DNA of 64,000 nt from an uncultured Lachnospiraceae bacterium (GTDB lineage Bacteria > Bacillota > Clostridia > Oscillospirales > CAG-272). A program made the position numbers and the translations under genes. Positions 5,148 to 62,812 of this stretch are shown here, one piece after another. The stretch is taken from contig CAZUWA010000001.1 of the NCBI GenBank assembly GCA_964623895.1, positions 24,829 through 88,828 on the forward strand. Direction: 5' to 3'. The notes beneath the pieces were generated by a model that saw nothing but the letters and a program-made list of their open reading frames with translations, did not search any database and was not told the DNA's origin. How positions within the stretch are numbered: the stretch's first letter is position 1; each line of letters begins with the position of its first letter.

Positions 5148-6350
5148 ATGTTCAGCAAAAAAGAGTGTGTAGCAATGCTTTTGGCAGGTGGACAGGGTAG
5201 TAGACTTTATGCACTGACAGAAACCACCGCAAAACCGGCAGTCCCATTTGGCGGAAAGTACAGGATCATCGACTTTCCCCTTTCAAACTGTGTCAATTCA
5301 GGCATAGATACTGTTGGTGTTCTGACACAGTATCAGCCACTTGCGCTCAACGAGTACATCGGTAACGGTCAACCATGGGACCTTGACCGTACCTCAGGCG
5401 GTGTAATGGTTCTGCCTCCCTATCAAGGCAAGGACGGCGCAGACTGGTATAAGGGCACAGCCAACGCCATCTATCAGAATCTCAATTTTATCAACCGCTA
5501 TGATCCCGATTATGTACTCATTCTTTCGGGTGATCATATCTATAGTATGGACTATCATGCCATGCTTGATTATCACAAGTCCCATGAGGCAGACTGTACC
5601 ATTGCCGTGATCGACGTTCCGCTATCAGAAGCTTCTCGGTTTGGTATCATGTATACCGATGAGAACGAGCGCATCACTGAATTTGCGGAAAAGCCCAAAA
5701 ATCCGAAATCCACGAAAGCTTCGATGGGCATTTACATTTTTGGTAAGAAGATCCTTGAAAAATTTTTAAAGGAAGATGCAAAAAATCCTAATTCGGACAA
5801 CGACTTCGGCAAAAATATCATTCCTGCCATGCTTGCTTCCGGTGCAAAGATGTATGCATACCGGTTCAAAGGTTATTGGAAGGATGTCGGAACGATTGAT
5901 AGCCTTTGGGAAGCAAATATGGATTTGCTTGGCAATGAACCGGTATTCAATATCAATGATAGAAATCACCGCATCTATTCAAGAAGTGAGGCACGTCAGC
6001 CGCAGTATATTGGTGAGAATGCAAGGGTCGAGAATGCGCTTATCAGCGAAGGATGTGAAATTTACGGTGCGGTGATCAACAGTATTCTTTTCCAAGGAGT
6101 ATATGTTGCTCCGGGCGCAGTCATCAAGGACAGTGTCGTATTCTCAGATTGTGCGATTGAAGAGGGCGCAAGGGTATCCTATGCGATGCTCGACCATGAT
6201 GTCACTGTCAAAACGGGCGCAACCGTTGGCAGGGAACGTGCAGACGGCGTGAAGATTGCAGTGCTCGGCGCAGGGTATACCGTTTGTGAAAAGACCGTAG
6301 TAGAAGAAGGCGCGATGATCTATCCGACCATCGGAACGGATGAAGAATAA
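5148..6350 (+). CDS. glgC: Glucose-1-phosphate adenylyltransferase catalytic subunit
   Basis: N-terminal [13 protein letters not shown] nucleotide-binding motif, a left-handed beta-helix C-terminus, and AAGGAGG as RBS. Confidence 0.95.
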
Positions 6351-34065: not shown

Positions 34066-34071
34066 GATGCT

Positions 34072-34686
34072 ATGGTAAGAATTAAGCAAGATCGTTGCTC
34101 TATCGTAAAACTGGTTGAGCTTGCCGTTTTAACGGCGATTGTGTTGGTTTTGCAATTGGGCGGATTTGTACTTCGTCTACCGTTTCTTGCCACGCCGGTC
34201 AGTTTGGTTCTGATTCCCATCGTACTTGGTGCAATTCTGACAGGTCCGATCGGCGGTGCTTGGCTTGGCTTGGTTTTTGGTTTAGAAACGCTGTTCGTAT
34301 GCGGTGTGATGGGAACGGATCTTTTCACAGCTACCCTCTTTCAAGCGCATCCCGTGCTTACTTCGGTTACCTGTATCGGTAAAGGTGTTCTTGCAGGGTT
34401 GGTGGCAGGGCTTTGCTATCGTGCGTTTGAGAAAAAGAATCGTTATGCGGCGGTGTTTACCGCCGCTGCCGTTGCGCCTGTTGTCAACACCAGCTTCTTT
34501 ATTCTTTGCGGACTGTTGATGCGAGATACCATTGCCCAAAACTTCCTTGAGCAGGGCAGTACCGTGATTTATTTCTTGGTGATCGGCTGTGCGGGATTCA
34601 ATTTTATCTTTGAGTTTTTGGTCAACATGATCTTTACTCCTGCCATTCACAGATTGATCTTATTGCTCAGCAAGAATAAAGCATGA
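34072..34686 (+). CDS. ECF transporter S component (substrate-capture subunit), substrate unknown
   Basis: 204 aa with about 6 TM helices and an N-terminus (LVELAVLTAIVLVLQ) typical of ECF S components. It starts 6 nt after the upstream gene. Confidence 0.65.
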   Translation: MVRIKQDRCSIVKLVELAVLTAIVLVLQLGGFVLRLPFLATPVSLVLIPIVLGAILTGPIGGAWLGLVFGLETLFVCGVMGTDLFTATLFQAHPVLTSVTCIGKGVLAGLVAGLCYRAFEKKNRYAAVFTAAAVAPVVNTSFFILCGLLMRDTIAQNFLEQGSTVIYFLVIGCAGFNFIFEFLVNMIFTPAIHRLILLLSKNKA

Positions 34687-34708
34687 TCTGTACATGGAGG
34701 TGATTCAG

Positions 34709-35911
34709 ATGAACAGGCAAGTATTTTTCTCTGCGGACATTCTTTTGCCGAAGAGAGAGTATGAAAAGTGGGCAGTTGTTGCGTGCGACCAATTTACCTC
34801 GGAAGAACGATATTGGACATCAGTTGATGCCTTGGTTGGGGAAGCGCCTTCGGCTCTGCGGCTGATCTTGCCGGAGATATACCTTGAAAAAGAAGGCGTG
34901 GAGGAGCGCATTGCAACCATTCAGAGCAATATGGAACATTATCTTGCCTCGGATATTTTTACGGAAGAGCGGGGAATGATCTATCTTGAGCGTACCATGC
35001 CCGACGGTTCTATTCGTCACGGAGTGGTTGGTGCGATCGATCTTTCCGATTACGACTTCCGGGCGGAGAGTCATTCGCTCATTCGTGCCACTGAAGAAAC
35101 AGCGATCGAACGCATTCCGCCTCGTTTGAGGGTTAGAGAAGGGGCTGCGTTAGAACTTCCGCACATTCTTTTGTTGATCGATGATCCGGAGAATACCGTG
35201 ATAGCACCGCTGACTGCTGAAAAAGAAGATCTTCGCAGGGTGTATGACTTTGAATTGATGATGCACAGCGGACACCTGACGGGATATTGTCTTGGGAAAG
35301 CACATCAGCGTACATTATCCGCTGCGTTAGAAGCGCTGGCAGAGAAAGCGGAAGACGGTCTGCTTTTCGTTGTGGGGGATGGTAATCATTCGCTTGCGAC
35401 TGCCAAAGCGGCATCTGAGACGAGCGACAGTCCTCTTGCAAAACGAGCATTGGTCGAGATCGTCAATATCCACGATCCTGCCATTCGCTTTGAGCCGATA
35501 TACCGCGCGCTGTTCGGTGTGGATGAAGAAGCACTCTTCTCTGCATTTCTTGCCGCGATGGGCGGAGAATATGAAGGTGAAGATGGGCAGGATTTTGATC
35601 TCGTCGGCAGTGGGATCACGCGCACGGTGCGCGTCAAGCCTAGGGCAAAATTGCCGGTCGGAACCCTGCAACCCTTTTTGGATGACTATCTAAACCATCA
35701 TCCGGAAGTCAGAATCGACTATATCCATGGCGAGGAAACACTCTTTGACCTTTGTGGGAAAGCGGGTGTTGCGGGTTTTATTTTCAAAGGAATGGAAAAA
35801 AATGAGTTGTTTGAAGCGGTACGTGTAGACGGCTCGTTGCCCAGAAAAACTTTTTCAATGGGGCATGCATTTGAAAAACGCTTCTATATGGAAGCGCGAA
35901 GAATAAAATAA
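34709..35911 (+). CDS. DUF1015 domain-containing protein
   Basis: Size and motifs (VVACDQFTSE, VVGDGNHSLATAK, LPRKTFSMGHA) match my memory of the DUF1015 family. I chose the ATG at 34709, behind GGAGGTGA. Confidence 0.75.
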   Translation: MNRQVFFSADILLPKREYEKWAVVACDQFTSEERYWTSVDALVGEAPSALRLILPEIYLEKEGVEERIATIQSNMEHYLASDIFTEERGMIYLERTMPDGSIRHGVVGAIDLSDYDFRAESHSLIRATEETAIERIPPRLRVREGAALELPHILLLIDDPENTVIAPLTAEKEDLRRVYDFELMMHSGHLTGYCLGKAHQRTLSAALEALAEKAEDGLLFVVGDGNHSLATAKAASETSDSPLAKRALVEIVNIHDPAIRFEPIYRALFGVDEEALFSAFLAAMGGEYEGEDGQDFDLVGSGITRTVRVKPRAKLPVGTLQPFLDDYLNHHPEVRIDYIHGEETLFDLCGKAGVAGFIFKGMEKNELFEAVRVDGSLPRKTFSMGHAFEKRFYMEARRIK

Positions 35912-48194: not shown

Positions 48195-48262
48195 TGAGCT
48201 TTGCAATGCAAAATTCATGATCACAATTTGTGCCGTTGAAAGACGGTGGGATGGAGATGACG

Positions 48263-48529
48263 ATGAAGGTCAAAAGCGGATTTGTTGTTCATACTGTCGG
48301 CGGTGAAACGGTTGCAGTCGCTTCGGGAGAACTTGCAATGGAGTTTAACGGAATGGTTAAATTGAAAGGAACGGGTGCGTTCCTTTTTGAGCTTCTTCAG
48401 AATGATATCACCGAAGAGGAGCTTGTGACAAGGTTGGCTGAGGAATACATCGTGGATGTTGCAATCGCAAAACGAGATGTGCGCGCGTTCTTGGCGAGCC
48501 TTGAAAATGCAGGATTGATCGAGCAATGA
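48263..48529 (+). CDS. PqqD-family protein (RiPP recognition element-like peptide chaperone)
   Basis: The C-terminal pattern KLKGTGAFLFELLQNDITEEELVTRLAEEYIVDVAIAKRDVRAFLASLENAGLIE is the PqqD/RRE winged-helix signature. The start is ambiguous (48251, 48257 or 48263). Confidence 0.8.
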   Translation: MKVKSGFVVHTVGGETVAVASGELAMEFNGMVKLKGTGAFLFELLQNDITEEELVTRLAEEYIVDVAIAKRDVRAFLASLENAGLIEQ

Positions 48530-48984
48530 ACAGATCGGTGTCTTTTGAAGACAAAAGGACTTTTCTTTCAAAGAATGGTTTTTACCTCTCCACACCGGAA
48601 GGGAACAGTATGTTTCCTTTTGTAAAAGGACGCAAGGATTCGGTCGTGATACTGCCTGTTAAAAAAGAAATACGGCGTCTTGACGCTATTCTTTATGAAC
48701 GGGCGGACGGAAACCATGTTTTGCATCGTGTTATTGGCAGGGATGGCGATTGCTATATTGTACGGGGGGACAACTGTTATTACAAAGAGTTTGTGATACC
48801 CGAACAGATCATCGGTGTCCTTTCGAAAGTCTACAGAAACGGAAAAAAAGAAAAAGACGTGAATGGACGTGCGTATCGCTTTGCCGTTATGGTTTGGAAC
48901 ATTCTCTATCCGTTTCGTTTTGTTGGACATGCCGTTTTGCAGATCCTTCGGCGGCTTAAACGATTTTTGATTGGAAAAAAATAA
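48526..48984 (+). CDS. S24/S26-family peptidase with Sec11/SipW-type (S26B-like) Ser-His-Asp layout
   Basis: GNSMFP (Ser), VLHRVIG (His) and IVRGDNCYY (GDN box). There is a C-terminal hydrophobic helix and no N-terminal TM. ATGA-coupled to the PqqD gene. Confidence 0.75.
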   Translation: MNRSVSFEDKRTFLSKNGFYLSTPEGNSMFPFVKGRKDSVVILPVKKEIRRLDAILYERADGNHVLHRVIGRDGDCYIVRGDNCYYKEFVIPEQIIGVLSKVYRNGKKEKDVNGRAYRFAVMVWNILYPFRFVGHAVLQILRRLKRFLIGKK

Positions 48985-48985
48985 G

Positions 48986-49969
48986 ATGAAAATCAGAAAT
49001 AAAAGAAAACTGTTTATTATTTTTGCCGTTCTTGCTATGGTTTTGGCTATTGCGGGAACATCGATCCTTGTGGTATTAAGAACAAATCGTATGGAGGCAG
49101 AACGCCAACAATTGGCAGAACGCATCGAGTTGGCTAAAAGCTACGAAGAGAGGATCGAGGAGGATGAGAAAAAAATAACGGCTTTGGATGTTCGGAAGAG
49201 GGAGATTGAGAAAATCGGTTGCTCGATGATGTCTTTCCTCTTTATGCAGTGTTCCGATAACTTGTATAACGAAGCGTATCAGTATATGACGCTTTGGAAA
49301 GCGACCGGCTTTTTCACGGTCGGGAAAGAGGAATACCCCGGAAAGGAAGGGTGTATAACCGTAGAGCAATATACGAAGCTGTGTGACGCAGGTTGGGTTC
49401 CAGTTGTTTCGGCGTCCGAGGAGCAACTGACAGAACAGTATCTCTCGGAAATGGACATGCTGTTTCAAGGACTGGGCGAAAAACCGAAGGCGATCGCATT
49501 CGGCAGAAGAAAAATTTTGGCAGAGGAGGCGGAGTTGGTCGTATCGAAAGGATATGAGATTGTATTCTATGATGCGCAGAGATCACCTGAATTTTCCGAA
49601 AAAGCCACGGAGATCGGACTTCAGTATATCCCCTTTTACTACTCTAGCAGAAAAACGTATGTCGGTACTGCCATCTCAGATTATATTAAGAAAGGCGGAA
49701 GCGCTGTTTTGGCAGTCGGGCATGTCACGGTGCAGGTGTCGACAGAATTAGAAGATCGTGATCAATTGTTGTCGTCGCTTAAGCAGAGTGTCTGCGATTT
49801 GGCACAAAACTACAATTACTATACCGATTCTTCATTGTTTATGGAAGAGACGATACAGAAAAACACGGTTGTTAAGGACGAACTGATTGAGATCAAGGAG
49901 CAAGAGTCTTTGCTCAGAGACGAAATCTCCGCACTCAGAAAAGAAATCAACAGTATATATCAAAAGTGA
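48986..49969 (+). CDS. Membrane-anchored coiled-coil protein with degenerate polysaccharide-deacetylase (NodB)-like core
   Basis: N-terminal TM helix with flanking coiled coils. The core segment SFLFMQCSDNLYNEAYQYMTLWKATGFFTV aligns by eye to the NodB motif-1 region (LTFDDG...ATFFV), but the DD pair is lost. Confidence 0.5.
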   Translation: MKIRNKRKLFIIFAVLAMVLAIAGTSILVVLRTNRMEAERQQLAERIELAKSYEERIEEDEKKITALDVRKREIEKIGCSMMSFLFMQCSDNLYNEAYQYMTLWKATGFFTVGKEEYPGKEGCITVEQYTKLCDAGWVPVVSASEEQLTEQYLSEMDMLFQGLGEKPKAIAFGRRKILAEEAELVVSKGYEIVFYDAQRSPEFSEKATEIGLQYIPFYYSSRKTYVGTAISDYIKKGGSAVLAVGHVTVQVSTELEDRDQLLSSLKQSVCDLAQNYNYYTDSSLFMEETIQKNTVVKDELIEIKEQESLLRDEISALRKEINSIYQK

Positions 49970-49988
49970 GAAAGGAAACACAAATATT

Positions 49989-50732
49989 ATGGATAACAAG
50001 GAAAACGCAACCACAGAAATCAGTTTGATCATGCTGCTTCAAGTACTGAAAAAGAGCGTCGTTTGGGTGCTGTTGGGAGCAGTCCTTTTTGGTTGCGCGG
50101 CAGCGCTGTTCGGCATGTTTGCAATCGAAGATCAATACAGCAGTTCTATCACCTATATGATCGGAGACGGCGCAACAACCACCAATTCCGATTTAAGCGC
50201 TATGAGTAACCATCTTGAACGTTATAAAGTGATACTCACCTCCAACAAAGTCATCAAAGAGGTCGTGATGAATTCGATCATTGATGACGGCGATATTGAT
50301 TTTGCTGTCGCTCAAATGTCCGCAGCAACGGACTTTAGCGGAACATCTGCCGGTGTGTTTGAGATCACTGTTACATACAGCGATCCTTCGGTCTCTTATG
50401 CAATGATCACCAGTTACAGGAATCTGATTGACAAGATCGTCGAAGATAATGATCTGCCATTCCCCGTGACCTTGGTCGATGCACCGAATGCACCTGCGAA
50501 AGCGCCTTCCAACAACGGAAGAACTTTGAAATACGGCGCGATCGGATTTGTTCTCGGTGCTTTGATCGTCTATGGCATTTCCTTACTGATCGCTATAAAT
50601 GATTCCAAGATCCATGATGAGCAAGAGATTAAGGATGTGCTCAATCTGCCGGTTCTCGGATCAATTCCTCGGTTTTCCGCTGTTACATCTGCAAACAACG
50701 CTGTCAAACCGGACAATAAAAATATGAGGTGA
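49989..50732 (+). CDS. Wzz/CpsC/YveK-type chain-length-determinant / BY-kinase transmembrane modulator
   Basis: ISLIMLLQVLKKSVVWVLLGAVLF N-terminal TM, an extracellular domain, and a second TM near the C-terminus (GAIGFVLGALIVYGISLLI). Confidence 0.85.
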   Translation: MDNKENATTEISLIMLLQVLKKSVVWVLLGAVLFGCAAALFGMFAIEDQYSSSITYMIGDGATTTNSDLSAMSNHLERYKVILTSNKVIKEVVMNSIIDDGDIDFAVAQMSAATDFSGTSAGVFEITVTYSDPSVSYAMITSYRNLIDKIVEDNDLPFPVTLVDAPNAPAKAPSNNGRTLKYGAIGFVLGALIVYGISLLIAINDSKIHDEQEIKDVLNLPVLGSIPRFSAVTSANNAVKPDNKNMR

Positions 50733-50740
50733 GAAGAGAG

Positions 50741-51493
50741 ATGAGCATTTTTAATAAAAACAAAAAGAAAAAACATCGCACTGCCGATTCTTATAAGGGA
50801 AAACTGCTTTGCAATGATACACCTTTTGCCGTTTCCGAGGCGTATAATACTCTTCGTACCAACTTAATGTACACCTGTGTAAATGAAAAATGTCCGGTAT
50901 TCGGCATAGTCAGTGCGCTCTCCGAATCCGGAAAAAGTCTCACTTCTGCAAATCTTGCAATCGCATTTTCGAGAATGAATAAAAAAGTGCTTTTGATTGA
51001 TGCAGATATGAGAAAGCCGGTACAACATAAGTGCTTTGATTTGCAAACCAACATTGGGCTTTCTGAAGTTCTTTCCGGTCAGACAAAATTTGAAGATGTC
51101 ATTGTGCATCCGCAAAAATATCCCGCCCTGTCTCTACTTCCTTCCGGCAAGATCCCGCCGAATCCGCAGGAATTGCTCGCTTCCGCGAAAACGGCAGAAT
51201 TCTTTAAATGGGCGAAGGAACGGTATGATGTTATCATTGTTGACCTGCCCCCTATAGGTGTTGTTTCCGATGCCACGATCCTTTCAAGTGTGATCAGCGG
51301 ATACTTGATGGTCATTTTGCAGGATGTTACGGAAGTGGCGCATGCTAAGCATAGTTACGAGACACTTGAGCGGATGAACTGCAAAGTGATCGGTTCGATT
51401 CTCAACGGTGTCGATATGAAGACAAGCAGGTATTACAAAGGTCATGGAAGCGGCTCCTATTATCGGAGTTATTACGACTATAAGGAAGAATAA
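50741..51493 (+). CDS. CpsD/CapB-family protein-tyrosine kinase (BY-kinase catalytic subunit)
   Basis: Walker A SALSESGKS, A' LLIDADMRKP, Walker B VIIVDLPP, and a C-terminal Tyr cluster YYKGHGSGSYYRSYYDY. Confidence 0.9.
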   Translation: MSIFNKNKKKKHRTADSYKGKLLCNDTPFAVSEAYNTLRTNLMYTCVNEKCPVFGIVSALSESGKSLTSANLAIAFSRMNKKVLLIDADMRKPVQHKCFDLQTNIGLSEVLSGQTKFEDVIVHPQKYPALSLLPSGKIPPNPQELLASAKTAEFFKWAKERYDVIIVDLPPIGVVSDATILSSVISGYLMVILQDVTEVAHAKHSYETLERMNCKVIGSILNGVDMKTSRYYKGHGSGSYYRSYYDYKEE

Positions 51494-52194
51494 TGATCGA
51501 AAGAGTGGATTTTCATTGTCATATTCTCCCAAAAGCAGATCATGGCAGTGATAGTGTAGAACAATCTCTTGAACAATTGGTGTTACTAAAGAATGCCGGT
51601 GTCATGCAGGCAGTGGCGACCCCTCACTTTTATCCACAGATGCTCTCGGTGGAAGATTTTTTGAGACGACGCACTGACTGCGCTGAGGCGTTGGCAAATG
51701 CGTTGCCGGAGGATGCGCCGACTGTTTATCTTGGCGCGGAGGTATTATTTTGCCCCGGAATGGAAGAGATGACGGGACTTCAGCGGCTTTGCATTGAAGG
51801 GACAAATGTTCTGCTTCTCGAAATGCCGCTTATGCCACTGAACGACAGCACTTTTGAGGCTTTTGAACGTTTTGTGTTGCGAAGAGATGATCTACGGATC
51901 GTTTTGGCGCATATTGATCGATATGACAGAGATGATGTCGCGGATCTGATGGAGCAACCTGTTTTTGCGCAGATCAATGCGCACGCACTTGAGGGCAGAC
52001 GTATGCGAAAATGGCTTTCTTCGTATATTGGTGCGGAACGTGTCGTTGCGTTTGCGACCGATCTGCATGGCGCGGACAAGAAGCGGATCAAAGGTTACCT
52101 GAAGGGGCTTTCCCGTCTTGATACAGAAGTGGAAGAGCGAATCTGTCATTTTTCAAGATCGTTACTTAAAAACGCGCGTCCGCTCACAAAATAA
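51493..52194 (+). CDS. PHP-family protein-tyrosine phosphatase (CpsB/YwqE-like)
   Basis: N-terminal DFHCHILPKADHGSDS metal-binding motif. TAATG-coupled to the kinase gene. Confidence 0.85.
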   Translation: MIERVDFHCHILPKADHGSDSVEQSLEQLVLLKNAGVMQAVATPHFYPQMLSVEDFLRRRTDCAEALANALPEDAPTVYLGAEVLFCPGMEEMTGLQRLCIEGTNVLLLEMPLMPLNDSTFEAFERFVLRRDDLRIVLAHIDRYDRDDVADLMEQPVFAQINAHALEGRRMRKWLSSYIGAERVVAFATDLHGADKKRIKGYLKGLSRLDTEVEERICHFSRSLLKNARPLTK

Positions 52195-52441: not shown

Positions 52442-52942
52442 CTACTTCTCTCTCTTTAAAATCAGTGTTGTTGGAATGCCAAGTAGTGCTCCGGTGAAGA
52501 CGCCAATCGGTATGAGAATGATCAGAGATGATGCCAACATCGGCGTGGAAAGCATCAAAACTGCAACGGCTATCTGTGCCAGATTGTGTGCCACCGCGCC
52601 TCCGATTGAAAGAACAATCGGATGAAAGCCAAACTTTTTTAAAAGAAACATGACAAGGAACGAAGCGATCCCTCCGGCGATACTATAAAAAATTGCCGTT
52701 GGATTGGGGACAAACAGAAGCGTTACCAACAAAATCCGTATTATGCTGACAGCAAATGCAATCAAAGGATGGCAGAAATAGAGAGAAAGCAGGATCGCCG
52801 CATTTGCCAGTCCCAATTTGACGCCTTGTATCGGCAGAAAGTCGAGAATGGGAAGAACTGCGTCGATGTATCCGAGGATTATGGCAAACGCCGCAAGCAT
52901 TGAAGCGGTGGCAAGCGAACGGTTTGTTCTATCATTTTTCAT
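52442..52942 (-). CDS. Gx transporter family protein (Hpre_diP_synt_I / PF07456-like membrane protein)
   Basis: 166 aa with 5 TM helices. The N-terminus ASMLAAFAIILGYIDAVLP...GVKLGLANAAILLSLY is typical of the family. Confidence 0.8.
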   Translation of the reverse strand: MKNDRTNRSLATASMLAAFAIILGYIDAVLPILDFLPIQGVKLGLANAAILLSLYFCHPLIAFAVSIIRILLVTLLFVPNPTAIFYSIAGGIASFLVMFLLKKFGFHPIVLSIGGAVAHNLAQIAVAVLMLSTPMLASSLIILIPIGVFTGALLGIPTTLILKREK

Positions 52943-52953
52943 AGCGATACCTT

Positions 52954-54462
52954 TTATTCAATGGTAACGGTCAGGCGGTGCGGAAGACATACTAAGACCG
53001 CAGGCAAACTCATGCTGTTAATCGGCTTTGATTTTGCACACCATTCATTTGGACAGTCTGCGGCATAGATATATACTTGCCCGTCACAAATCGCAATGAT
53101 ATTGTAGTCTTTTTCTTTCCCAACACGATAGATCTGATCTTCTGCGAGGGAAAGGCGGCAAATTTCCTCACCATTCTGTCTAATGACCGCTTCCGGTGCT
53201 TCGTGCGTCTCTAAGATGCCGGAAAAGGCGATCACAAGAAAGCAGATGATCAAGATTGCTCCGCTTCCGACAAAGAAGACGATATCTTTTTTTCCAAAGT
53301 GCATTTTGGGGGCAGAAGGGACGTTTGGCTGATCTTGCGTATTTTTCTGCTTTTTGGGGATGTTACGATAAAGATATAGCGCAATCACGACCGCAAGAAG
53401 GAGAAGTAAAAAGAGGAAAACTGCGCGATCATTGCCGCTTTCATTCGCAGTAGCAAATCCGTCCGTCATTGAATACTCTCCGTTTTCTTTGACAAAGAGT
53501 GCTTCGCCTCCCGTGATCTTCAGAATTTCCTTTCCTTCTTCTTCACCGAGCACAAATAGTGCGGTCGAAAGAGCATCTGCAAGTGCGGCGCTATTTTGCA
53601 GTACCGTCACCGATGCGAGACTGTTTTCTACGGGTTTGAGCGTTTCGGGGGAGATGATGTGATGATAATTCTTTCCTTCATACCAAAAGCTACGTTGATC
53701 GCTTCCGCTTGTCACAAGTGCACCGTCTGAAATATAAGCAGACGGGAGCGAAAGAGAAGAATCGGTCGGATCGGCAACGCCTACAAGAAAGGGAAGCCCT
53801 GTTTGTGGATCGTTGCCCTTGGCGTAGATGTTGCCGCCAAGATCTAAAAGATAGTTTTCACAGCCATTTTCCGCTAACAGGATGGCGATACGGTCTGCGG
53901 CATAACCCTTTGCAAAAGCGCCGAGGTCGATTGATGCGGCAGAATCATTTAGATATATCGTTTTTGAAAGGCGGTTGAGTTTAAGTGCTGAAGGATCAAT
54001 ATGCTGTCCCGCTTCCATTAAAAGTTCTGTCTGCGGCAAAACACCTTCTTCGGTAGCTTTTTTCCAAAGTTTTGTGACTGCGCCCATGGTCGGTGAAAAT
54101 GCACCGTTTGTCAGTTCCGAGATCTCAAGTGCAAGAGAAAGAATTGTGAAAAGTTCTTCATCCGCACGCACCGGCGAAATGCCGGCGGCAGCATTGATCG
54201 CATAAATGCCTTGGTCGCTTTTCTCTTCATATCCGTCAAAAAGAGCATCAAGTCGTGTGAGTTCTTCTTTCACCAAAAGCGAAACTGCCGAGAACTCTCC
54301 GACAGTTTCAAAAGCACCGTAAAAGGTACATACGGTATCAAAAAGGTCAATGTAACTTTCGTTATAGAGCGTCATGTTCTTTTTTTGACAGCCGGAAAGG
54401 CAAGGGAGAAGAAAGGAAATTGCCAACAAAAATGAACCGGCATGTAAAAGAAATCGCTTCAT
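52954..54462 (-). CDS. apbE: FAD:protein FMN transferase (ApbE) lipoprotein fused via two TM helices to a C-terminal NusG_II (DUF1312) domain
   Basis: Lipobox LSGC. ApbE motifs GAFAKGYAADRI, LDLGGNIYAKG and VTSGSDQRSF. Two TM helices follow, then a tail of about 80 aa (IRQNGEEICRLSL...VCLPHRLTVTIE) like standalone NusG_II proteins. Confidence 0.85.
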   Translation of the reverse strand: MKRFLLHAGSFLLAISFLLPCLSGCQKKNMTLYNESYIDLFDTVCTFYGAFETVGEFSAVSLLVKEELTRLDALFDGYEEKSDQGIYAINAAAGISPVRADEELFTILSLALEISELTNGAFSPTMGAVTKLWKKATEEGVLPQTELLMEAGQHIDPSALKLNRLSKTIYLNDSAASIDLGAFAKGYAADRIAILLAENGCENYLLDLGGNIYAKGNDPQTGLPFLVGVADPTDSSLSLPSAYISDGALVTSGSDQRSFWYEGKNYHHIISPETLKPVENSLASVTVLQNSAALADALSTALFVLGEEEGKEILKITGGEALFVKENGEYSMTDGFATANESGNDRAVFLFLLLLLAVVIALYLYRNIPKKQKNTQDQPNVPSAPKMHFGKKDIVFFVGSGAILIICFLVIAFSGILETHEAPEAVIRQNGEEICRLSLAEDQIYRVGKEKDYNIIAICDGQVYIYAADCPNEWCAKSKPINSMSLPAVLVCLPHRLTVTIE

Positions 54463-55247
54463 TTCTTACCTCTCGGACAACAGTCGTTTACGCAGTTTCT
54501 GCACTGCAAATTGCGATTTGTTTCTTCAAGAAAGTATTCGGGGTGTCTGTAAAATGCGATCTCATGACGCGCAAATCCGATAAATGCGACAAGAATGATC
54601 GGTGCGGAGAAGGCCGTTGCAGGAGATAAAAAAAGGGGTGTCACGATCATGATGCTGTCCCAACAATAAATGCGACAGGTCGTGCAACAACGGTTTTTAT
54701 TGACGAGATTACGAAACAGACACCAATGACGAATGAAAAAAATATCCGTAACATAGAAAAATATCGTGATGACGAGCAGTTCCGGCGTTCCGACATTTGC
54801 AAGCCAATGACCGATTGAGTCCGGTAGGAAATCCCATTTTTCGGGATGGATGCAAGTCGTACGGATAAGGATATAGGGAATAATATAGGTCGACATACAT
54901 ACCACATATGCAATAAATGCCCGCAGTGCCTGAAAACGCATAAAGCGGATTCGCTTTTTCTGCGGTTCCCGTCCGGTAGGAAGATAGCTAACGGCATGAC
55001 TTTTTTTCATTCCAATGCAGTCGAAACTCTTGGGAAAAAGGCGAAGAATGAAGTCTGCCATGAAAAAAAGCCAAGTAACCACCAAGATAGGGGATTTCAA
55101 GAAGGCGAAGCGATCATGTTCATCAAAAAAATCAAGCGCTTCCCGCTTTAAACAATAAACCCCAAAGACTGCAAGTGCCAAAACGCTGCGGAGGACCAAA
55201 CGTACCAACGTAACTTTGTTGTGTGAATAATGCTTTGCTAACTTCAT
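54459..55247 (-). CDS. Polytopic membrane protein with Cys-rich motifs, unknown function
   Basis: 262 aa with several TM helices and the Cys clusters NRCCTTCRIYCWD and LQCRNCVNDCCPRG. ATGA-coupled on both sides (plsC upstream, apbE downstream). Confidence 0.55.
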   Translation of the reverse strand: MKLAKHYSHNKVTLVRLVLRSVLALAVFGVYCLKREALDFFDEHDRFAFLKSPILVVTWLFFMADFILRLFPKSFDCIGMKKSHAVSYLPTGREPQKKRIRFMRFQALRAFIAYVVCMSTYIIPYILIRTTCIHPEKWDFLPDSIGHWLANVGTPELLVITIFFYVTDIFFIRHWCLFRNLVNKNRCCTTCRIYCWDSIMIVTPLFLSPATAFSAPIILVAFIGFARHEIAFYRHPEYFLEETNRNLQCRNCVNDCCPRGKK

Positions 55248-56047
55248 TGAGTTTTTTCAACCATTTCCTTTGCAATTCTTGATAACGTACGGCTACGCAC
55301 GGAAGCAACCGTTTCTTGATCGATGATACCTGCAAGCCTTAAATTCACAGTTGTGGTGCGTTTGAAAAAGTTTTTGTGAATTTGTGTTGTGCCATCGATC
55401 GTGAGGACAACAATGGGTACTTTTGCCTTCTTTGCAATCAAAAAGACACCATCTTTGAAGGGAAGCAATTCTCCCGTCTTACTTCTTGTGCCCTCCGGGT
55501 AAACGCCTACGCTCATACCGTTATTCAGCCGGTCAACGGCGCTGTAAACCGCGTTCAAAGCTTCCTTTGAATCGAGACGGTCGATCTTAATGTATCCTGC
55601 TTTGTTGATGAACGGACCTGCGATCGGAATCTTAAAATTCCCTTCTTTTGAAATGAAGCAGAGAGGTCTCTCTTTTAAATGAACCGCCAACACCATCGGA
55701 TCAAAGTTTGAGAGATGGTTACACACAAAGAGACACGGTCCTTTTGGCAGAGCGCCAACATCAAATCCCTTTGTTCTGACACCTGCAAAACGATTGATGA
55801 TATCAATGGTAGCCACAGTCAAATAGATATAGATTTTATGCGGCTTTTTTGGAGAAGGGGCGTGTTTGATGCACAGACTCCAGAGAAAAGCGAGGATAAA
55901 ATGGAGAGAAAATATCGTGAAAGCAGAGGCGAGGTAGAGGGGAATCAACCACACGAGTGAGAAAATACCTCCAAAACCGATGACACACAGGTAGAGTAAG
56001 ATAGCGAGAACACTAGCCAATATCCGGTAGAAATAAAACAAAAACAT
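55244..56047 (-). CDS. plsC: 1-acyl-sn-glycerol-3-phosphate acyltransferase family protein
   Basis: N-terminal TM helices, the HX4D motif CNHLSNFDP, and VYPEGTRS. Confidence 0.85.
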   Translation of the reverse strand: MFLFYFYRILASVLAILLYLCVIGFGGIFSLVWLIPLYLASAFTIFSLHFILAFLWSLCIKHAPSPKKPHKIYIYLTVATIDIINRFAGVRTKGFDVGALPKGPCLFVCNHLSNFDPMVLAVHLKERPLCFISKEGNFKIPIAGPFINKAGYIKIDRLDSKEALNAVYSAVDRLNNGMSVGVYPEGTRSKTGELLPFKDGVFLIAKKAKVPIVVLTIDGTTQIHKNFFKRTTTVNLRLAGIIDQETVASVRSRTLSRIAKEMVEKTQ

Positions 56048-56050
56048 AGA

Positions 56051-56965
56051 TCACTTTGCGAGTTTTGCAGGAACGGCGAATCGAACGGCTGCCGGTGCGA
56101 TCTCAATGTCAAATTCTTCACTGCCGATGATCTCGCCATCAAGAGATAATTGAAATTTAGGAGTTGCTTTAACATGTACCTTCTTTACTTGGCGGTAGAC
56201 AAGGATTTTTTCGAATTTCTCCATATCAAGGTGCAAGCCCTTTGTGTAAGGACCGAGTAAAGAGACGAATTTGAAGTGTGACATGACCTTGATAACGCAG
56301 ACTTCCAAGAGTCCGTCGTCGTTGCGTCCCTTCGGCGCGCACTTATATTGACCGCCCACATATCTGCCGTTTGCAACAGAGCAGAGAAGTAGTTTTTTGG
56401 GGCAGATAACCTCTTTATCATCAACAGTGATCGTGCATTTGGTTGCCATTTGTGTAAAGAGTGCGACCACAACGCCAATGGTGTAAGCCTTTGAACCGAA
56501 CTTGCTCTTAAGAGCATTTCCGACTTTTGCGACCTTGGTATCAAAGCCGAAGTTTGTAACATTGATGGAATAGCGGTTGCCCACCTTCATCAGATCGATC
56601 GATGTTTCTTTGCCGGCAATGAGAGAGGGTAAATCAAGAAAATCTTCCTTAGTCCCGTAATATTTTATGTAATCGTTACCGCTTCCGCAGGCATAAACTG
56701 TCATGGAGGCATTTTTGTTTTCATTGTAAGCAAGACCATTTGCGACTTCGCATACCGTTCCGTCACCGCCGCAGGCATAAAAGCGGACTTCTTCATTAGG
56801 ATGGTTTTCAAGATATTTTTTTACAAAAACAGTGGCATCTCCGATGGCAGTCGTCAGATAGACCTGATAATCGATCGGGGGGGCAAGCGCCTGCAGTTTT
56901 GCTTCCAATTCTTTTTGCAAGACACCATCTCCTGCCTTCGGATTGACAATAAAGAGATGTTTCAT
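56051..56965 (-). CDS. Diacylglycerol-kinase-family lipid kinase (YegS/BmrU-like)
   Basis: NPKAG start and the ACGGDGTVCEVANGL motif. Confidence 0.85.
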   Translation of the reverse strand: MKHLFIVNPKAGDGVLQKELEAKLQALAPPIDYQVYLTTAIGDATVFVKKYLENHPNEEVRFYACGGDGTVCEVANGLAYNENKNASMTVYACGSGNDYIKYYGTKEDFLDLPSLIAGKETSIDLMKVGNRYSINVTNFGFDTKVAKVGNALKSKFGSKAYTIGVVVALFTQMATKCTITVDDKEVICPKKLLLCSVANGRYVGGQYKCAPKGRNDDGLLEVCVIKVMSHFKFVSLLGPYTKGLHLDMEKFEKILVYRQVKKVHVKATPKFQLSLDGEIIGSEEFDIEIAPAAVRFAVPAKLAK

Positions 56966-57062: not shown

Positions 57063-58196
57063 TTATTTTGTCACAAATTGTATGTTTAAGACGACAATTT
57101 CGTTCGCCGTTCCAATGCGAAGCGGTGGCCCCCAATAACCAACGCCGGCGGTCGTGACGGCATGACCGCCGTGTTGCTGTTGATGTCCGTAGGAAAATTT
57201 TGACATGAGCTTTGACGCAATATTGCCGGGAAAAGTCTGACCGTTGTGGGTGTGCCCGCATAGCACAAGATCTGCGCCTGATTTCAAAAGATGTGCTGCA
57301 TCTGCCGGGTTATGGTCTAAAACAATGATCGGCTTTTTATGAGATCCATCCAAAATCTCTTCCGCAGTTTTGCGTGCGGCATATTTTGAAAGCGTACCTT
57401 CATGTCGATCTCGTCTGCCATAAAGAGTAAAGAGAGGTAGTTCCAGTCTCTCGTCGGCAAGAAGAGTGATGCCTGCTTTTTGATAGAACAGAGCAGTACG
57501 CGGATCGTCAATGCCATAACTGTCATGATTTCCGCGACAGAAATAGATCGGATATTTTTCAGAAATGGCAGAAAGCGCCTCAATTGCCGTTTCTTCCTCT
57601 TTGATTTCATCGTAATCGTTGTCAAACAGGTCACCTGCAACGAAGACTGCGTCCGCGTTTTCTTTGATTACTGCATCGCGCAGTCGGTAAAGAAGTCCCT
57701 TGGTTGTAAAATAACCGAGATGTAGATCGGAAAATAAAACAGCGTGGTAACTGCCGGGACAGTTGGAAGGTATGTCGATATGATATTCTATTCTTCGGAG
57801 CTTCCTGGCATTCAGTCCGCCGTATATCCTCAAAACGATCAGCGCCAATAGTGTGGCGACTATCATGAGAGTGAAATTGATGGTAAAAAGACCTGTCAGG
57901 TAACTGAAATAGCAGACTACGGCATCAAGAAGCAGGAGGATCAAAAGATAGAGATAACTTCCGATGATCGTTTCTGCCAAGCGGTGCAAAATCCTTCTGA
58001 TCTTTTTTCCCGGAAGCATACCGGAAAGTGGAAAGAGCAGTGTGGGACATAAAGTCAAGATCGTCAACAACACTGCATGCCACACTGTAAAAGCACCGTT
58101 TGAGGAGAGATAAAATCCGCCTGCGGTAAACGCAAGCACCAAGATGCCGAGTGGAATGATGAGGACCTTTTTGATATCTTTGGATGTTTTTTGCAC
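57063..58196 (-). CDS. Membrane-anchored metallophosphoesterase (YkuE-like)
   Basis: Four N-terminal TM helices. Motifs SDLHLG, AGDLFDND, GNHD and CGHTHNGQ. GTG start behind AAGGAGG. Confidence 0.85.
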   Translation of the reverse strand: MQKTSKDIKKVLIIPLGILVLAFTAGGFYLSSNGAFTVWHAVLLTILTLCPTLLFPLSGMLPGKKIRRILHRLAETIIGSYLYLLILLLLDAVVCYFSYLTGLFTINFTLMIVATLLALIVLRIYGGLNARKLRRIEYHIDIPSNCPGSYHAVLFSDLHLGYFTTKGLLYRLRDAVIKENADAVFVAGDLFDNDYDEIKEEETAIEALSAISEKYPIYFCRGNHDSYGIDDPRTALFYQKAGITLLADERLELPLFTLYGRRDRHEGTLSKYAARKTAEEILDGSHKKPIIVLDHNPADAAHLLKSGADLVLCGHTHNGQTFPGNIASKLMSKFSYGHQQQHGGHAVTTAGVGYWGPPLRIGTANEIVVLNIQFVTK

Positions 58197-59234: not shown

Positions 59235-61148
59235 TTGAAGTGGCTTGACAGACTGAAAAAAGTATCCGTGAAGGAAAAAACGATGTCTGAGATTGTCAAA
59301 CTTCCGAAGTTCGACGGAGATGGTTCGGACGGTATGCCGGGCAGTGATGATGAAGGAAGACCGTTTTACGGTGAGGATCTTGTTAAGACAGTTAAAATGG
59401 AGGCAGACCGCAGAAGGAACGAGCGGCTTCCTTATGAATTGCAGTGGCGACTGAACCGTAATTTTTTGGCAGGCAATCAGCATTGTGACATTGACGTGCG
59501 AAAGATGACGGTGGAAAACTATCGTCCGCCATACGATTACATGTCTGAGGAGATCTTCAACAAGATCGCACCGATCATGGAAAGTCGGATGGCACAGTTT
59601 AAAAGTGTCAGTTACGACATGGAAGCTGTTCCCGAAACGACCGGTTATGAAGATGTGCAGCAGGCGGCAGTCGCCGGCGCACTGATTGTCGGAAGGATTG
59701 GCAGAAATGCATTCAAAAAAGAACTGAACCGTGCGATGGGACTTTGCGAGACAGACGGAACGACTTTTTTTCTTTGTTGGTGGGACAAGGAGAAAGGTGA
59801 GCCTGTTGATACGGTACTGTCGTCCTTTGAGATCCTACCGGCGGATCTGACGGAAGAAAGCGTTGAAGGGCAGAGTTCGATCATCATCGAGCAGGTAAAA
59901 AGTCCGGAAGAGATCTTCACGCTGTATGGCGTGAAGGTCCGAGGGGAAAAAGTTCATAGTTATGCAAGTCTCTCCACTGCCGGCGCGGGTGGGTTTGGCT
60001 ACCGTTCTGGGACGGCACTTTTTACTCCCGTCGAACGAGAAAATTGCGTTGTTTTGCGGAACTATCTTGAAAAGCCGAGTGGAAAATATCCACAGGGTAG
60101 GATGGTCATTACGGCAGGAGATACGTTGATCTACAGTGGCATATTGCCTTATGAGGAGTATCCGTTGGTTTCGATGAAAGCGATGTATGTCACCGGTCAA
60201 TTCTTTGGCAGAAGTGTCATTGAAACGATGATTCCTCTTCAGAGAAGTTACAATGGTATCAAGAACCGCATCAACGATTACATCAATCGTTCCGCTTGTG
60301 GGCAGATACTGATTGAGGAAGGATCAGTCGATGCTGATGACATCACCGAGCGAGGATTGGAGCCCGGTGCATCGGTTATTTACGCAAGAGGTGCTACGCC
60401 TCCGAAATTGATGGAAGAGCCCACCCTCAGTGCGCTGGCTGAGACGCAGTGTGCACAATTGGTTTCCGATATGGAATATGCTGCAGGGGTCTCTGCGCTG
60501 TCTGCAAACGGCATTCTGCCGAACGGTGTCAACTCGGGAACAGCAATCGGAAGACTGCAAAACATTGATAGCGTCAGACTGTCTCTGTACACAGAAAACT
60601 ATCGGGCAGCATTACTGTGCCTTGCGGAGAAGTGGATCACGCTCTACCGAAATTATTTAAGCGAAGAGCGGGCAGTGCGATTGGTCGGGAATGGCGCAAG
60701 AGGTGCAGTGGCATTGTTCACCGGGCGTACCCTGAAGTATGGTGTTTTGCGCTTTTTGACGGAAAATGAACTGAAAGTCAAAGAAGATGAACAGCGAGAA
60801 CGCTATTTGGAGGCTTTAAAATTGGGGCTATTTTCTGAAGAAGATGGCAGTATTTCGGCAGAGAACAAACGCTTTGCCGTGAAAAAATTGCTTGGTACAG
60901 ACAAATCCCCCCCTAGCGAAGCGGATCTTCAGCATCAAAATGCACAAAATGAGAACATTGATTTTGAACTGGGCGAAGTATTACGGATTGAACCGCTCGA
61001 TGACCATGTCTTGCATCTAACGGAGCATCGTCTCTATGTATTGGAAGACAGTTTCAGAGAACGAATGAAGAAAGATCCGCATTGGGCGGAACCGATGTTA
61101 GAGCACATCAAGGAGCATGAATCACTGCTCAAGGAGGAGAAAAAATGA
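59235..61148 (+). CDS. Phage portal protein
   Basis: 637 aa with an N-terminus (MKWLDRL...) and WRLNRNFLAGNQ typical of portals, an acidic/His C-terminal region, and a position before scaffold and capsid. The alternative start is ATG 59283. Confidence 0.75.
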   Translation: MKWLDRLKKVSVKEKTMSEIVKLPKFDGDGSDGMPGSDDEGRPFYGEDLVKTVKMEADRRRNERLPYELQWRLNRNFLAGNQHCDIDVRKMTVENYRPPYDYMSEEIFNKIAPIMESRMAQFKSVSYDMEAVPETTGYEDVQQAAVAGALIVGRIGRNAFKKELNRAMGLCETDGTTFFLCWWDKEKGEPVDTVLSSFEILPADLTEESVEGQSSIIIEQVKSPEEIFTLYGVKVRGEKVHSYASLSTAGAGGFGYRSGTALFTPVERENCVVLRNYLEKPSGKYPQGRMVITAGDTLIYSGILPYEEYPLVSMKAMYVTGQFFGRSVIETMIPLQRSYNGIKNRINDYINRSACGQILIEEGSVDADDITERGLEPGASVIYARGATPPKLMEEPTLSALAETQCAQLVSDMEYAAGVSALSANGILPNGVNSGTAIGRLQNIDSVRLSLYTENYRAALLCLAEKWITLYRNYLSEERAVRLVGNGARGAVALFTGRTLKYGVLRFLTENELKVKEDEQRERYLEALKLGLFSEEDGSISAENKRFAVKKLLGTDKSPPSEADLQHQNAQNENIDFELGEVLRIEPLDDHVLHLTEHRLYVLEDSFRERMKKDPHWAEPMLEHIKEHESLLKEEKK

Positions 61149-61579: not shown

Positions 61580-62812
61580 ATGTCTACAAATTTAAACACC
61601 ATTTCCGATATTTTGAAGGAGCAGTATCTTCCTGCTTTGCAAAATCAGATTACGACCGCACCGTCTCCTTTTATGGAGATGATCAAAAAAGTACCGCTGA
61701 CTACCGGTGGGAAGATCACAGCGGTTGCACCTTTCGGTATTAACGGCGGCTTTGGTTTTGGCAGTGACGGCAACAATACACCTGCATCCGGCACTCGAAA
61801 ATACAAGCGTTTCGAGGTTGAGCCGGTGGATATGTATGTCGATATCCGCATTACCGATAAGACTGTCAAACTGGCTAACGAGGAGGGGGCTTTGATCTCT
61901 GCGTTGGAGGACGAAGTGATGGGATCTTATGAATCCGCCAAGTGGAATGTCTCCAGAGCCTTGTTTGGGGATGGTTCCGGTAAATTGTGTGCGCTGACTG
62001 CGGCATCGGTAAATAACACATCCGATTCGACCGTAACTCTAACGGTTGATGAATGTGCAAATCTCATTGAAGGGTTGACGGTGGATGTATACAGTTATTC
62101 GTCTGCGACTGTCGAAGCAACTCTTTCTGCCAACAATGCAGGTTATCGCATTGCGGCAATTGACAGAGAGAACAAAAAGGTGGTCTTGGAAGGTTTGGGC
62201 GCTACCGCAACAGTCAAAAATACCGAAAAGAACGACTACGGATTTCTTTGTGTTCAAGGATCTTACAACAAGGAACTGACGGGTCTGAAGGCAATCTTCG
62301 ATGACAGTGTTACTGAAATTTACGGTTACGATAAGGCAACGCATGCTTTTGTCACACCGCTCAAGATGGATGCCGCACATGCGGTTTCAGATATGGTGAT
62401 TTATGATGCTGTCAAAAAATCTGCGGACTACAGAAACGGTAACATTGATCTTGTTATGCTGGGTGACAAAGCATTCCGCGCTTATCAGAACTATATGAGG
62501 GAAAATAATGTTACCATTTGTGAAAAAGCTGAGTTCGTGGGTGGCGCAACTGGTTATAAGGTGTTGGTAGGCAGCCGTACCGTTACGATCGTCAATGAAA
62601 AGATGATCCCGACAGATGAGGCATGGTGTGTAGACACCGGCGCATTTACCTTTGCTCATCTCGACTTTGACTTCTGCGATTACGGCTCTTCAGGAATTTT
62701 CCAACTCGTTCCCGGCACTTCTTACTACCGTGCGTTACTTGCTTCTTACGGCAACCTTATTTGTAAGAATCCCGGAAGTTGCGTGAAGATCATCAATTTT
62801 GCAGAAGCATAA
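61580..62812 (+). CDS. Phage major capsid protein
   Basis: 410 aa with a strong AAAGGAGAA RBS, positioned after the scaffold. The N-terminus ISDILKEQYLPALQNQ resembles coat proteins that use a separate scaffold. Confidence 0.7.
   Translation: MSTNLNTISDILKEQYLPALQNQITTAPSPFMEMIKKVPLTTGGKITAVAPFGINGGFGFGSDGNNTPASGTRKYKRFEVEPVDMYVDIRITDKTVKLANEEGALISALEDEVMGSYESAKWNVSRALFGDGSGKLCALTAASVNNTSDSTVTLTVDECANLIEGLTVDVYSYSSATVEATLSANNAGYRIAAIDRENKKVVLEGLGATATVKNTEKNDYGFLCVQGSYNKELTGLKAIFDDSVTEIYGYDKATHAFVTPLKMDAAHAVSDMVIYDAVKKSADYRNGNIDLVMLGDKAFRAYQNYMRENNVTICEKAEFVGGATGYKVLVGSRTVTIVNEKMIPTDEAWCVDTGAFTFAHLDFDFCDYGSSGIFQLVPGTSYYRALLASYGNLICKNPGSCVKIINFAEA

Follow-up and report, generated by a model that had tools for sequence, protein, structure and literature searches.

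In Listeria monocytogenes, export of flavin adenine dinucleotide (FAD) to the ApbE-type enzyme FmnB requires EetB together with FmnA, which resembles the T subunits of energy-coupling factor (ECF) transporters, and ECF ATPases; flavinylation by FmnB likewise depends on EetB and FmnA, and EetB, which stands for family PF07456, is an FAD-binding relative of ECF S subunits (Rivera-Lugo et al., 2023; PMC9973259). Both FAD binding and export have been demonstrated for the Listeria EetB only (PMC9973259). Across the 31,910 genomes surveyed in that study, eetB colocalizes with eetA in 3,328 and with apbE in 2,169, and in 572 Clostridia genomes it colocalizes with Rnf genes; proteins of the NusG_II family (PF07009) are labeled EetA in its Data Set S1, and the fusions it describes are EetA-EetB (14 genomes), EetB-ECF-T and EetB-ECF-A (PMC9973259). 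Here we describe a locus in which ApbE and EetA are domains of one lipoprotein, encoded directly before an EetB gene, within a 64-kb stretch of a contig from an uncultured Lachnospiraceae bacterium (CAZUWA010000001.1; hereafter the window, meaning the whole stretch of 64,000 nucleotides analyzed). An ApbE-EetA fusion is not mentioned in the main text of PMC9973259 or in the other main texts that we searched. A sequence-only reading of the window had described ApbE, NusG_II and Gx-transporter genes as neighbors with no assigned function, a description that is outdated for EetB (PMC9973259) and still true for EetA, the sole component of the FmnB/EetA/EetB set with neither a phenotype nor a proposed role.

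The locus resembles the Listeria set closely, with the same Pfam trio (ApbE, NusG_II and PF07456) and the same forms: the ApbE enzyme is a lipoprotein, EetA consists of a transmembrane (TM) helix and an outward beta domain, and EetB is small, polytopic and ECF-S-like (PMC9973259). Unlike in Listeria, ApbE and EetA occupy a single polypeptide in the window, joined by an added TM helix, and the operon neighbors include no members of the Ndh2, PplA, DmkA/DmkB or FmnA/ECF-T families that mark the Listeria locus for extracellular electron transfer (EET). Since no genes for FmnA/ECF-T, Ndh2, PplA or DmkA/B were recognized in the window, this is not an EET locus. The published Rosetta-stone fusions follow the same logic as the one found here, in that parts of a flavin-trafficking complex are placed in a single chain (PMC9973259); the partner in the window is ApbE. 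We favor, with a probability of roughly 0.7, the reading that the locus encodes a fused module of the FmnB/EetA/EetB type for FAD export and flavinylation, and that a neighboring Cys-rich membrane protein of 262 amino acids (aa) stands outside that module. What is new is thus the domain-fused arrangement of a known module and, separately, an unannotated family of membrane proteins with seven invariant cysteines.

Results

A lipoprotein joining ApbE to EetA, encoded beside EetB

The two genes that carry the module, and the parts of the fusion, are as follows.

52442..52942, minus strand: PF07456 "Gx transporter" family protein (EetB), 166 aa, ECF-S-like putative FAD export subunit (Pfam, 84.7 bits)
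52954..54462, minus strand: ApbE::NusG_II (EetA) fusion lipoprotein, 502 aa (Pfam)
54388..54462, minus strand: signal peptide with lipobox LSGC, Cys25 (from the sequence; aligns with the LFSC/ACA lipobox position of six fusion homologues)
53458..54372, minus strand: ApbE (FAD:protein FMN transferase; FMN, flavin mononucleotide) domain, aa 31-335, expected to be extracytosolic (Pfam; predicted local distance difference test, pLDDT, mostly 80-93)
53224..53433, minus strand: membrane hairpin of two helices, aa 344-366 and 391-413, joined by a loop that is K-rich, disordered and cytoplasmic (hydropathy, AlphaFold2 and sequence)
52957..53205, minus strand: NusG_II/EetA beta domain, aa 420-502, expected to be extracytosolic (PF07009; AlphaFold2 beta strands at 424-501)

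The ApbE domain of the fusion (residues 62-322) scores 233.3 bits against PF02424 (cutoff 25.6) and covers profile positions 15-265 of 266, and the NusG_II domain (residues 403-502) scores 68.6 bits against PF07009 (cutoff 29.6) and covers positions 5-104 of 107. Searched against the sequences of the PDB, the fusion matches ApbE, Ftp and FmnB structures with E values from 2e-38 to 1e-24, the best being Ftp/ApbE 4xdt from Treponema pallidum (2e-38), with Listeria FmnB 7esa at 5e-37; for the C-terminal part, the match is to the NusG_II-like structure 4esn (5.8e-5). The motifs GAFAKGYA, LDLGGN, YHHI and ADALST align with T. pallidum Ftp; some of their residues do not vary between the fusions, and conservation is good at the others. 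These are candidates for the FAD- and Mg2+-binding motifs of ApbE enzymes, presumably with the catalytic residues among them. In an AlphaFold2 model of the full-length protein (mean pLDDT 77.5), the ApbE domain (residues 31-332) is confidently predicted and the loop between the TM helices (residues 367-390) falls below a pLDDT of 50.

An N-terminal hydrophobic helix precedes the lipobox, which is kept in six homologues. Because of this lipobox, the two TM helices and the K/R-rich loop between them, both soluble domains should lie outside the cell. The sequence-only reading had arrived at the same architecture, an ApbE lipoprotein fused through two TM helices to NusG_II with both soluble domains facing outward, and the Pfam matches and the helix positions bear it out. 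Residues ~389-502 of the fusion (~114 residues) match standalone EetA from two unfused loci described below, L117 and L115, along its entire length, and the second helix of the hairpin (391-413) falls on the N-terminal segment of standalone EetA (MKK followed by a TM helix). The fusion is therefore composed of ApbE, one added TM helix and a complete EetA, and the added helix would let EetA's own N-in helix keep its orientation.

Within the NusG_II/EetA domain, C470, C475, C492 and H495 are invariant in an alignment of the fusion homologues, which suggests a metal or disulfide site on the extracytosolic side. Cysteines aligned with C470 and C475, as well as the cysteine of a VCLP motif, are conserved in standalone EetA too. 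The tetrapeptide GSGA in the fusion was considered as a flavinylation site and rejected, since it lies within TM helix 2 and does not match the motif [ST]GA[ST].

The gene 11 bp downstream of the fusion belongs, as had been noted, to the Gx transporter family: its 166-aa product covers positions 1-144 of 147 of the PF07456 profile (cutoff 30 bits). The only PDB sequence that it matches is the riboflavin ECF-S protein RibU (3p5n), and this match is weak (E=0.006).

Recurrence of the fusion and its unfused counterparts

The ApbE::NusG_II architecture is found in at least seven protein clusters of ~500 aa, of which the six others are 37-42% identical to the window fusion, and these clusters keep the hairpin and the invariant residues in both domains. 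One homologue, MBP3321678.1, is annotated as "FAD:protein FMN transferase" only. A fusion that recurs in conserved form, with a complete EetA as its C-terminal part, supports the ApbE/NusG_II partnership that had been proposed from the covalent linkage in the window.

In four relatives (L001, L083, L084 and L086), a metallophosphoesterase gene is followed directly by the fusion gene and then by the Gx gene, so that the PF07456 gene adjoins the fusion in 4/4 of the relatives examined; the genes for a lipid kinase, PlsC and the Cys-rich protein, which sit between the metallophosphoesterase and the fusion in the window, are absent there. The fusion proteins of these four lineages show 38-42% identity and their metallophosphoesterases 40-48%, and in L083 the two genes overlap by 4 bp. 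The window and these lineages share long-range synteny, from a phage-like block to capsule genes, and the adjacency of metallophosphoesterase and fusion in the five lineages therefore counts as one evolutionary event.

Two loci hold the same components as separate genes. In L117 (GCA_054291525.1) the order apbE-eetA-eetB is identical to that of the window; apbE and eetA are 18 bp apart, and no gene for a substrate lies close by. In L115 the order is rnfC-rnfD-rnfG-rnfE-rnfA/B-eetA-eetB-apbE, and its ApbE is the closest standalone relative of the fusion (45% identity over the ApbE part). Clostridial rnf-linked clusters of this kind have the same accessory genes as the window, which likely do the same job there, flavinylating RnfG/RnfD; the module of L115 reads eetA-eetB-apbE, whereas that of the window reads apbE::eetA-eetB, fused and detached from rnf. 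The fusion appears to have arisen from an apbE-eetA-eetB gene order, a transition that would have needed the loss of a stop codon and the gain of an extra TM segment.

Flavinylation substrates and energizing subunits

A motif search confirmed that no protein of the operon contains the [ST]GA[ST] flavinylation motif, a point on which the sequence-only reading had been correct, and likewise recovered no flavinylation substrate (FMN_bind, DUF2271 or DUF3570 with [S/T]GA[S/T]) in the gene cluster of the fusion. The whole window has two [ST]GA[ST] matches, one in a 400-aa open reading frame (ORF) at 5148-6350 and one in argininosuccinate synthase, and both proteins are apparently cytosolic. The Metallophos proteins of the relatives also lack the [S/T]GA[S/T] motif. 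Their operons are headed, upstream of the metallophosphoesterase, by a secreted protein of ~800 aa (L001 4408-6813, L083 4384-6849, L084 4089-6659 and L086 4403-6814) with a weak papain-like (Peptidase_C1) match. This protein was rejected as a flavinylation target, being without the motif and having no homologue in the window. The substrates of the fusion would most probably be RnfG and RnfD encoded elsewhere in the genome, given that L115 joins the same module to rnf and that the association of eetB with Rnf genes in Clostridia is published (PMC9973259).

Among the annotated ORFs of the window, none was recognized as encoding an ECF-T or ECF-A subunit. The ORF at 34072-34686 (+) encodes the S component of an ECF transporter (PF12822) and lies between genes for an AMP-binding enzyme and a DUF1015 protein (block 32407-35911). 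As no ECF-T or ECF-A gene was seen in the window, the energizing module for both this PF12822 protein and the EetB-like protein would be encoded elsewhere. Shared ECF modules are usually encoded away from the genes of their S components.

The adjacent 262-aa Cys-rich protein and its family

Immediately upstream of the fusion lies the gene for a membrane protein in which the sequence-only reading had seen a candidate redox or metal partner of ApbE.

54459..55247, minus strand: Cys-rich polytopic membrane protein, 262 aa (no Pfam/NCBIfam match)
54657..54722, minus strand: Cys cluster 1, aa 176-197, CLFRNLVNKNRCCTTCRIYCWD, predicted cytoplasmic loop; C176, C187, C188 and C191 invariant
54477..54503, minus strand: Cys cluster 2, aa 249-257, CRNCVNDCC, predicted cytoplasmic tail; C249, C252 and C257 invariant

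The segments CCTTCRIYC (residues 187-195) and CRNCVNDCC (residues 249-257), and the ATGA coupling of this gene to plsC before it and to the fusion after it, can be read directly in the DNA and are as first described. The clusters are present as such; conservation redraws their limits, in that C195 and C256 are not conserved in the family and C176 belongs to the invariant set. Two alignments of 51 and 55 homologues, roughly 25-45% identical to the window protein, show seven invariant cysteines (C176, C187, C188, C191, C249, C252 and C257), and invariance at seven positions at this level of identity argues that the pattern is not due to chance. Further invariant residues are D168, W196-D197, E229, P236-E237 and N244, and the window protein has every invariant column of both alignments. 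The family signature can be written CPF-x8-CC-x2-CRI[YF]NWD ... HPERF ... C-x2-C-x4-C, or in shorter form as NRCCxxCRI[YF]NWD...HPERF.

A word-indexed search with the 262-aa protein returned only itself, and the family emerged with exhaustive phmmer, which gave 292 representatives at E<=1e-3 and 200 at <=1e-10, the best homologue scoring 1e-63. A profile search then yielded 1,981 clusters at 90% identity; the best 120 listed all bear the source name "hypothetical protein", and Pfam domains are absent from them. At least 600 stretches in species-representative genomes carry CRI[YF]NWDxxM and encode a relative, and the best 80 of these come from Oscillospiraceae, Lachnospiraceae, Dehalococcoidales, Smithella, Actinomycetota and others. 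The sources of the family are anaerobic lineages and habitats. Scans of metagenomes gave no close relatives of the window protein, their full-length matches being distant (<=32% identity).

Neither Pfam nor NCBIfam gives a match to the protein, even at E<=10, and the family profile retrieves only noise from the PDB sequences (nhTMEM16, E 0.35). Its AlphaFold2 model (pLDDT 80.3, predicted TM-score 0.79), in which residues 198-234 form a helical hairpin, has no match in the PDB by Foldseek (best E 1.4; TM-score <=0.21), and Pfam searches with longer family members (337-422 aa) revealed no informative fused domains. We found neither haem-type His pairs nor ferredoxin-type motifs (CxxCxxCxxxCP, CX3CP) or a Fer4 match in the 262-aa protein, the spacing of its cysteines being C-x10-CC-x2-C and C-x2-C-x4-C. 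A family of ~2,000 clusters with seven invariant cysteines and no match in Pfam, NCBIfam, the PDB or known folds deserves a name.

Family-wide, lysine and arginine are abundant in the N-terminus, loop 2, the Cys loop and the C-terminal tail, and net charge is near zero in loops 1 and 3. By the positive-inside rule, both Cys clusters are thus predicted to be cytoplasmic, with the membrane between them and the ApbE and EetA domains, a topology that speaks against the proposed partnership with ApbE. From the seven invariant cytoplasmic cysteines and the anaerobic sources of the family, we infer a cytoplasm-facing metal site, Zn or Fe-S, at the membrane surface. With low confidence, the protein may be a metal-dependent membrane enzyme or regulator that acts on a lipid-phase substrate.

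Genomic context of the 262-aa family

ApbE, NusG_II, Gx and this type of Metallophos protein are absent from the flanks of all 105 family loci searched with tblastn and with HMMs built from the fusion clade (0/105; 64 of the loci have at least 3 kb on both sides). The sequence-only reading had named beforehand a lack of association with ApbE/NusG_II genes as the outcome that would count against the partnership, and a lack of association with ApbE, NusG_II and Gx is what these loci display. Four lineages, moreover, have the fusion without the 262-aa protein. A role as a conserved partner of ApbE is not supported: with respect to flavinylation the 262-aa protein is a bystander, and nothing supports a part for it in flavin chemistry. 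Clearing it of such a role removes a false lead from the study of the module.

The neighborhoods of the family are heterogeneous, and neighbor clustering revealed no dominant partner. The commonest neighbor, a HAD phosphatase, occurs at eight loci, seven of them closely related, and many of the "operon-like" neighbors produced by a simple ORF caller are spurious antisense ORFs. Several neighbors are enzymes of glycerolipid metabolism. A DagK-like gene lies immediately upstream of the family member in L078 and L062; GpsA is encoded directly upstream on the same strand in two closely related loci, L007 and L039; L074 has a weak match to GpsA (27% identity), in divergent orientation and ~300 bp upstream; and PlsC adjoins the family member in the window and in L088. 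By a rough estimate these amount to ~5 independent events, where chance would give <1. The link to glycerolipids is suggestive but weak, and if the 262-aa protein has any functional link, glycerolipid metabolism is more likely than flavinylation.

The nearest homologue, P0122 (46% identity), is encoded on the 1-kb contig of L088 between the C-terminus of a PlsC and the ATGA-overlapped start of a lipoprotein (MKRF...LPAC). The PlsC C-terminus beside it reads AGIIDADTVAS, against AGIIDQETVAS in the window. At least one relative thus shares the order plsC, 262-aa gene, lipoprotein gene.

The gene string around the module

The genes for EetB, the fusion and the 262-aa protein are the last three of six minus-strand genes that lie head to tail, beginning with the metallophosphoesterase. 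The string reaches further upstream than the sequence-only reading had it, by a lipid kinase and a metallophosphoesterase with four TM helices.

55244..56047, minus strand: PlsC-like acyltransferase, 267 aa, two N-terminal TM helices (PF01553, 99.5 bits)
56051..56965, minus strand: YegS/DagK-type lipid kinase, 304 aa (DAGK_cat and YegS_C; TIGR00147 136.5 bits, cutoff 118.65)
57063..58196, minus strand: membrane metallophosphoesterase (calcineurin-like), 377 aa, four N-terminal TM helices, catalytic domain predicted cytoplasmic (PF00149)

Against TIGR00530, the PlsC-like protein scores 94.7 bits, below the cutoff of 102.95. The plsC/262-aa and 262-aa/apbE junctions are ATGA overlaps; 3 bp separate kinase from plsC and 11 bp fusion from Gx gene, and a gap of 97 bp lies between phosphoesterase and kinase. 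Within the string, sites resembling promoters or terminators are no more frequent than in shuffled sequence. In the metallophosphoesterase, the N-terminus and the segment after TM4 are K/R-rich, and the catalytic domain follows the four TM helices. We do not assign this protein a role in the flavin module.

Discussion

Our findings suggest a route by which the components of the module may cooperate. EetB, energized by ECF-T and ECF-A subunits encoded elsewhere, would export FAD, as its counterpart does in Listeria; the ApbE domain, anchored by its lipid and by the hairpin, would use this FAD to attach FMN covalently to Thr/Ser residues of its targets, with release of AMP. Whereas the identity of the enzyme is plain from its domain, its target may be RnfG/RnfD or another protein. 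The tethered EetA domain would dock ApbE to EetB and thereby let FAD pass from one to the other instead of being lost. This docking role is proposed because EetA occurs in two types of fusion, ApbE-EetA here and EetA-EetB in the literature (PMC9973259). Adding ApbE::EetA to the published EetA-EetB completes a Rosetta-stone chain, ApbE-EetA-EetB, and gives rise to the idea that EetA docks the transferase onto the FAD exporter.

Several observations weigh against this reading. A clean deletion of eetA in Listeria caused no EET phenotype (PMC9973259), which leaves an essential adaptor role for EetA unproven. Neither ECF-T/A genes nor a flavinylation substrate were recognized in the 64-kb window, and both export and target are therefore assumed from other organisms. 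As to the 262-aa protein, the order plsC, 262-aa gene, lipoprotein gene could be functional within a narrow lineage, and its link to glycerolipids is a weak one that few loci support, some of which are interrelated.

We weighed other explanations against these data. ApbE::EetA and EetB might serve mainly as an extracytosolic FAD pyrophosphatase for flavin salvage, as was first proposed for Treponema Ftp, acting together with the metallophosphoesterase and not as a flavinylase. That the best PDB match of the fusion is T. pallidum Ftp and that no substrate is encoded nearby would agree with salvage, as would the metallophosphoesterase gene, which lies upstream of the fusion in all five lineages (with three genes between the two in the window) and overlaps it by 4 bp in L083. 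However, the catalytic domain of the metallophosphoesterase is predicted to be cytoplasmic, the synteny reduces the five-lineage adjacency to a single event, the module is joined to rnf in a close relative without the fusion, and the Listeria EetB is an exporter (PMC9973259); we consider salvage as the main function unlikely. It is also conceivable that all six genes form one unit that links membrane-lipid remodeling, by the kinase, PlsC, the 262-aa protein and the phosphoesterase, with flavinylation in the envelope. From the kinase to the Gx gene, all junctions are overlaps or gaps of <=11 bp, and no convincing internal terminators or promoters stand out above the shuffled expectation, but co-transcription alone does not show a shared function, the three middle genes are missing from four sister lineages, and the neighborhoods of the 262-aa family are heterogeneous, all of which makes such a unit quite unlikely.

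Two further possibilities give the 262-aa protein a part in the module. As a lineage-specific transmembrane electron conduit, it would pass electrons from a cytoplasmic Fe-S site to an acceptor that the co-translated ApbE has flavinylated, and the two would make up a new electron-transfer system associated with ApbE, analogous to the NapH-like or MsrQ-like systems. Its gene is ATGA-coupled to apbE and probably stands in the same order on the L088 contig of its closest homologue; seven invariant cysteines and an anaerobic distribution fit an Fe-S protein; and ApbE clusters are known to recruit diverse membrane electron-transfer proteins (PMC8238504). The NapH-like Fe-S membrane components of ApbE systems (PMC8238504) are, like it, polytopic, with cytoplasmic Cys clusters and an apbE-adjacent gene. 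Unlike them, the 262-aa protein lacks ferredoxin motifs, matches no Pfam family, has no flavinylated partner encoded next to it and belongs to a family that does not co-occur with apbE. The absence of ApbE, EetA and EetB from all 105 family loci largely refutes a conduit, and the four sister lineages that have the fusion without the 262-aa protein, the lack of a flavinylation substrate in operon and window, the lack of haem-type His pairs and the prediction of no conserved cysteine or redox residue on the outer face point the same way, so that we judge it very unlikely. We would give as little credence to the broader proposal that the protein represents an undescribed class of integral-membrane metalloproteins, recruited in this lineage through translational coupling to plsC and apbE to link membrane-lipid remodeling or transmembrane electron supply with extracytosolic flavinylation; if true, this combination of metalloprotein, lipid enzymes and flavinylation would be a new type of ApbE-associated system.

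Further observations around the locus

A phage head module, with a portal protein of the P22/SU10 type and a major head protein, is encoded divergently beside the metallophosphoesterase gene, at 59235-61148 (+) and 61580-62812 (+). In L001, L083, L084 and L086, the orthologous operon is flanked by a phage block of portal, 79-aa ORF, SPOR-domain protein and large terminase; the stretch from phosphoesterase to portal in the window contains neither a terminase nor a SPOR gene. Since this synteny is kept among lineages whose fusions are only 38-42% identical, the block appears to be a domesticated or remnant element and not a recent prophage.

On the other side of the module, the window encodes at 48230-49969 (+) three proteins of 99, 152 and 332 aa; the first is PqqD-like, the second has a GNSMFP motif and the third matches no Pfam family. 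This block directly precedes the genes for Wzz, a CpsD-like kinase and a CpsB phosphatase (49887-52194), and the same block is present in L001.

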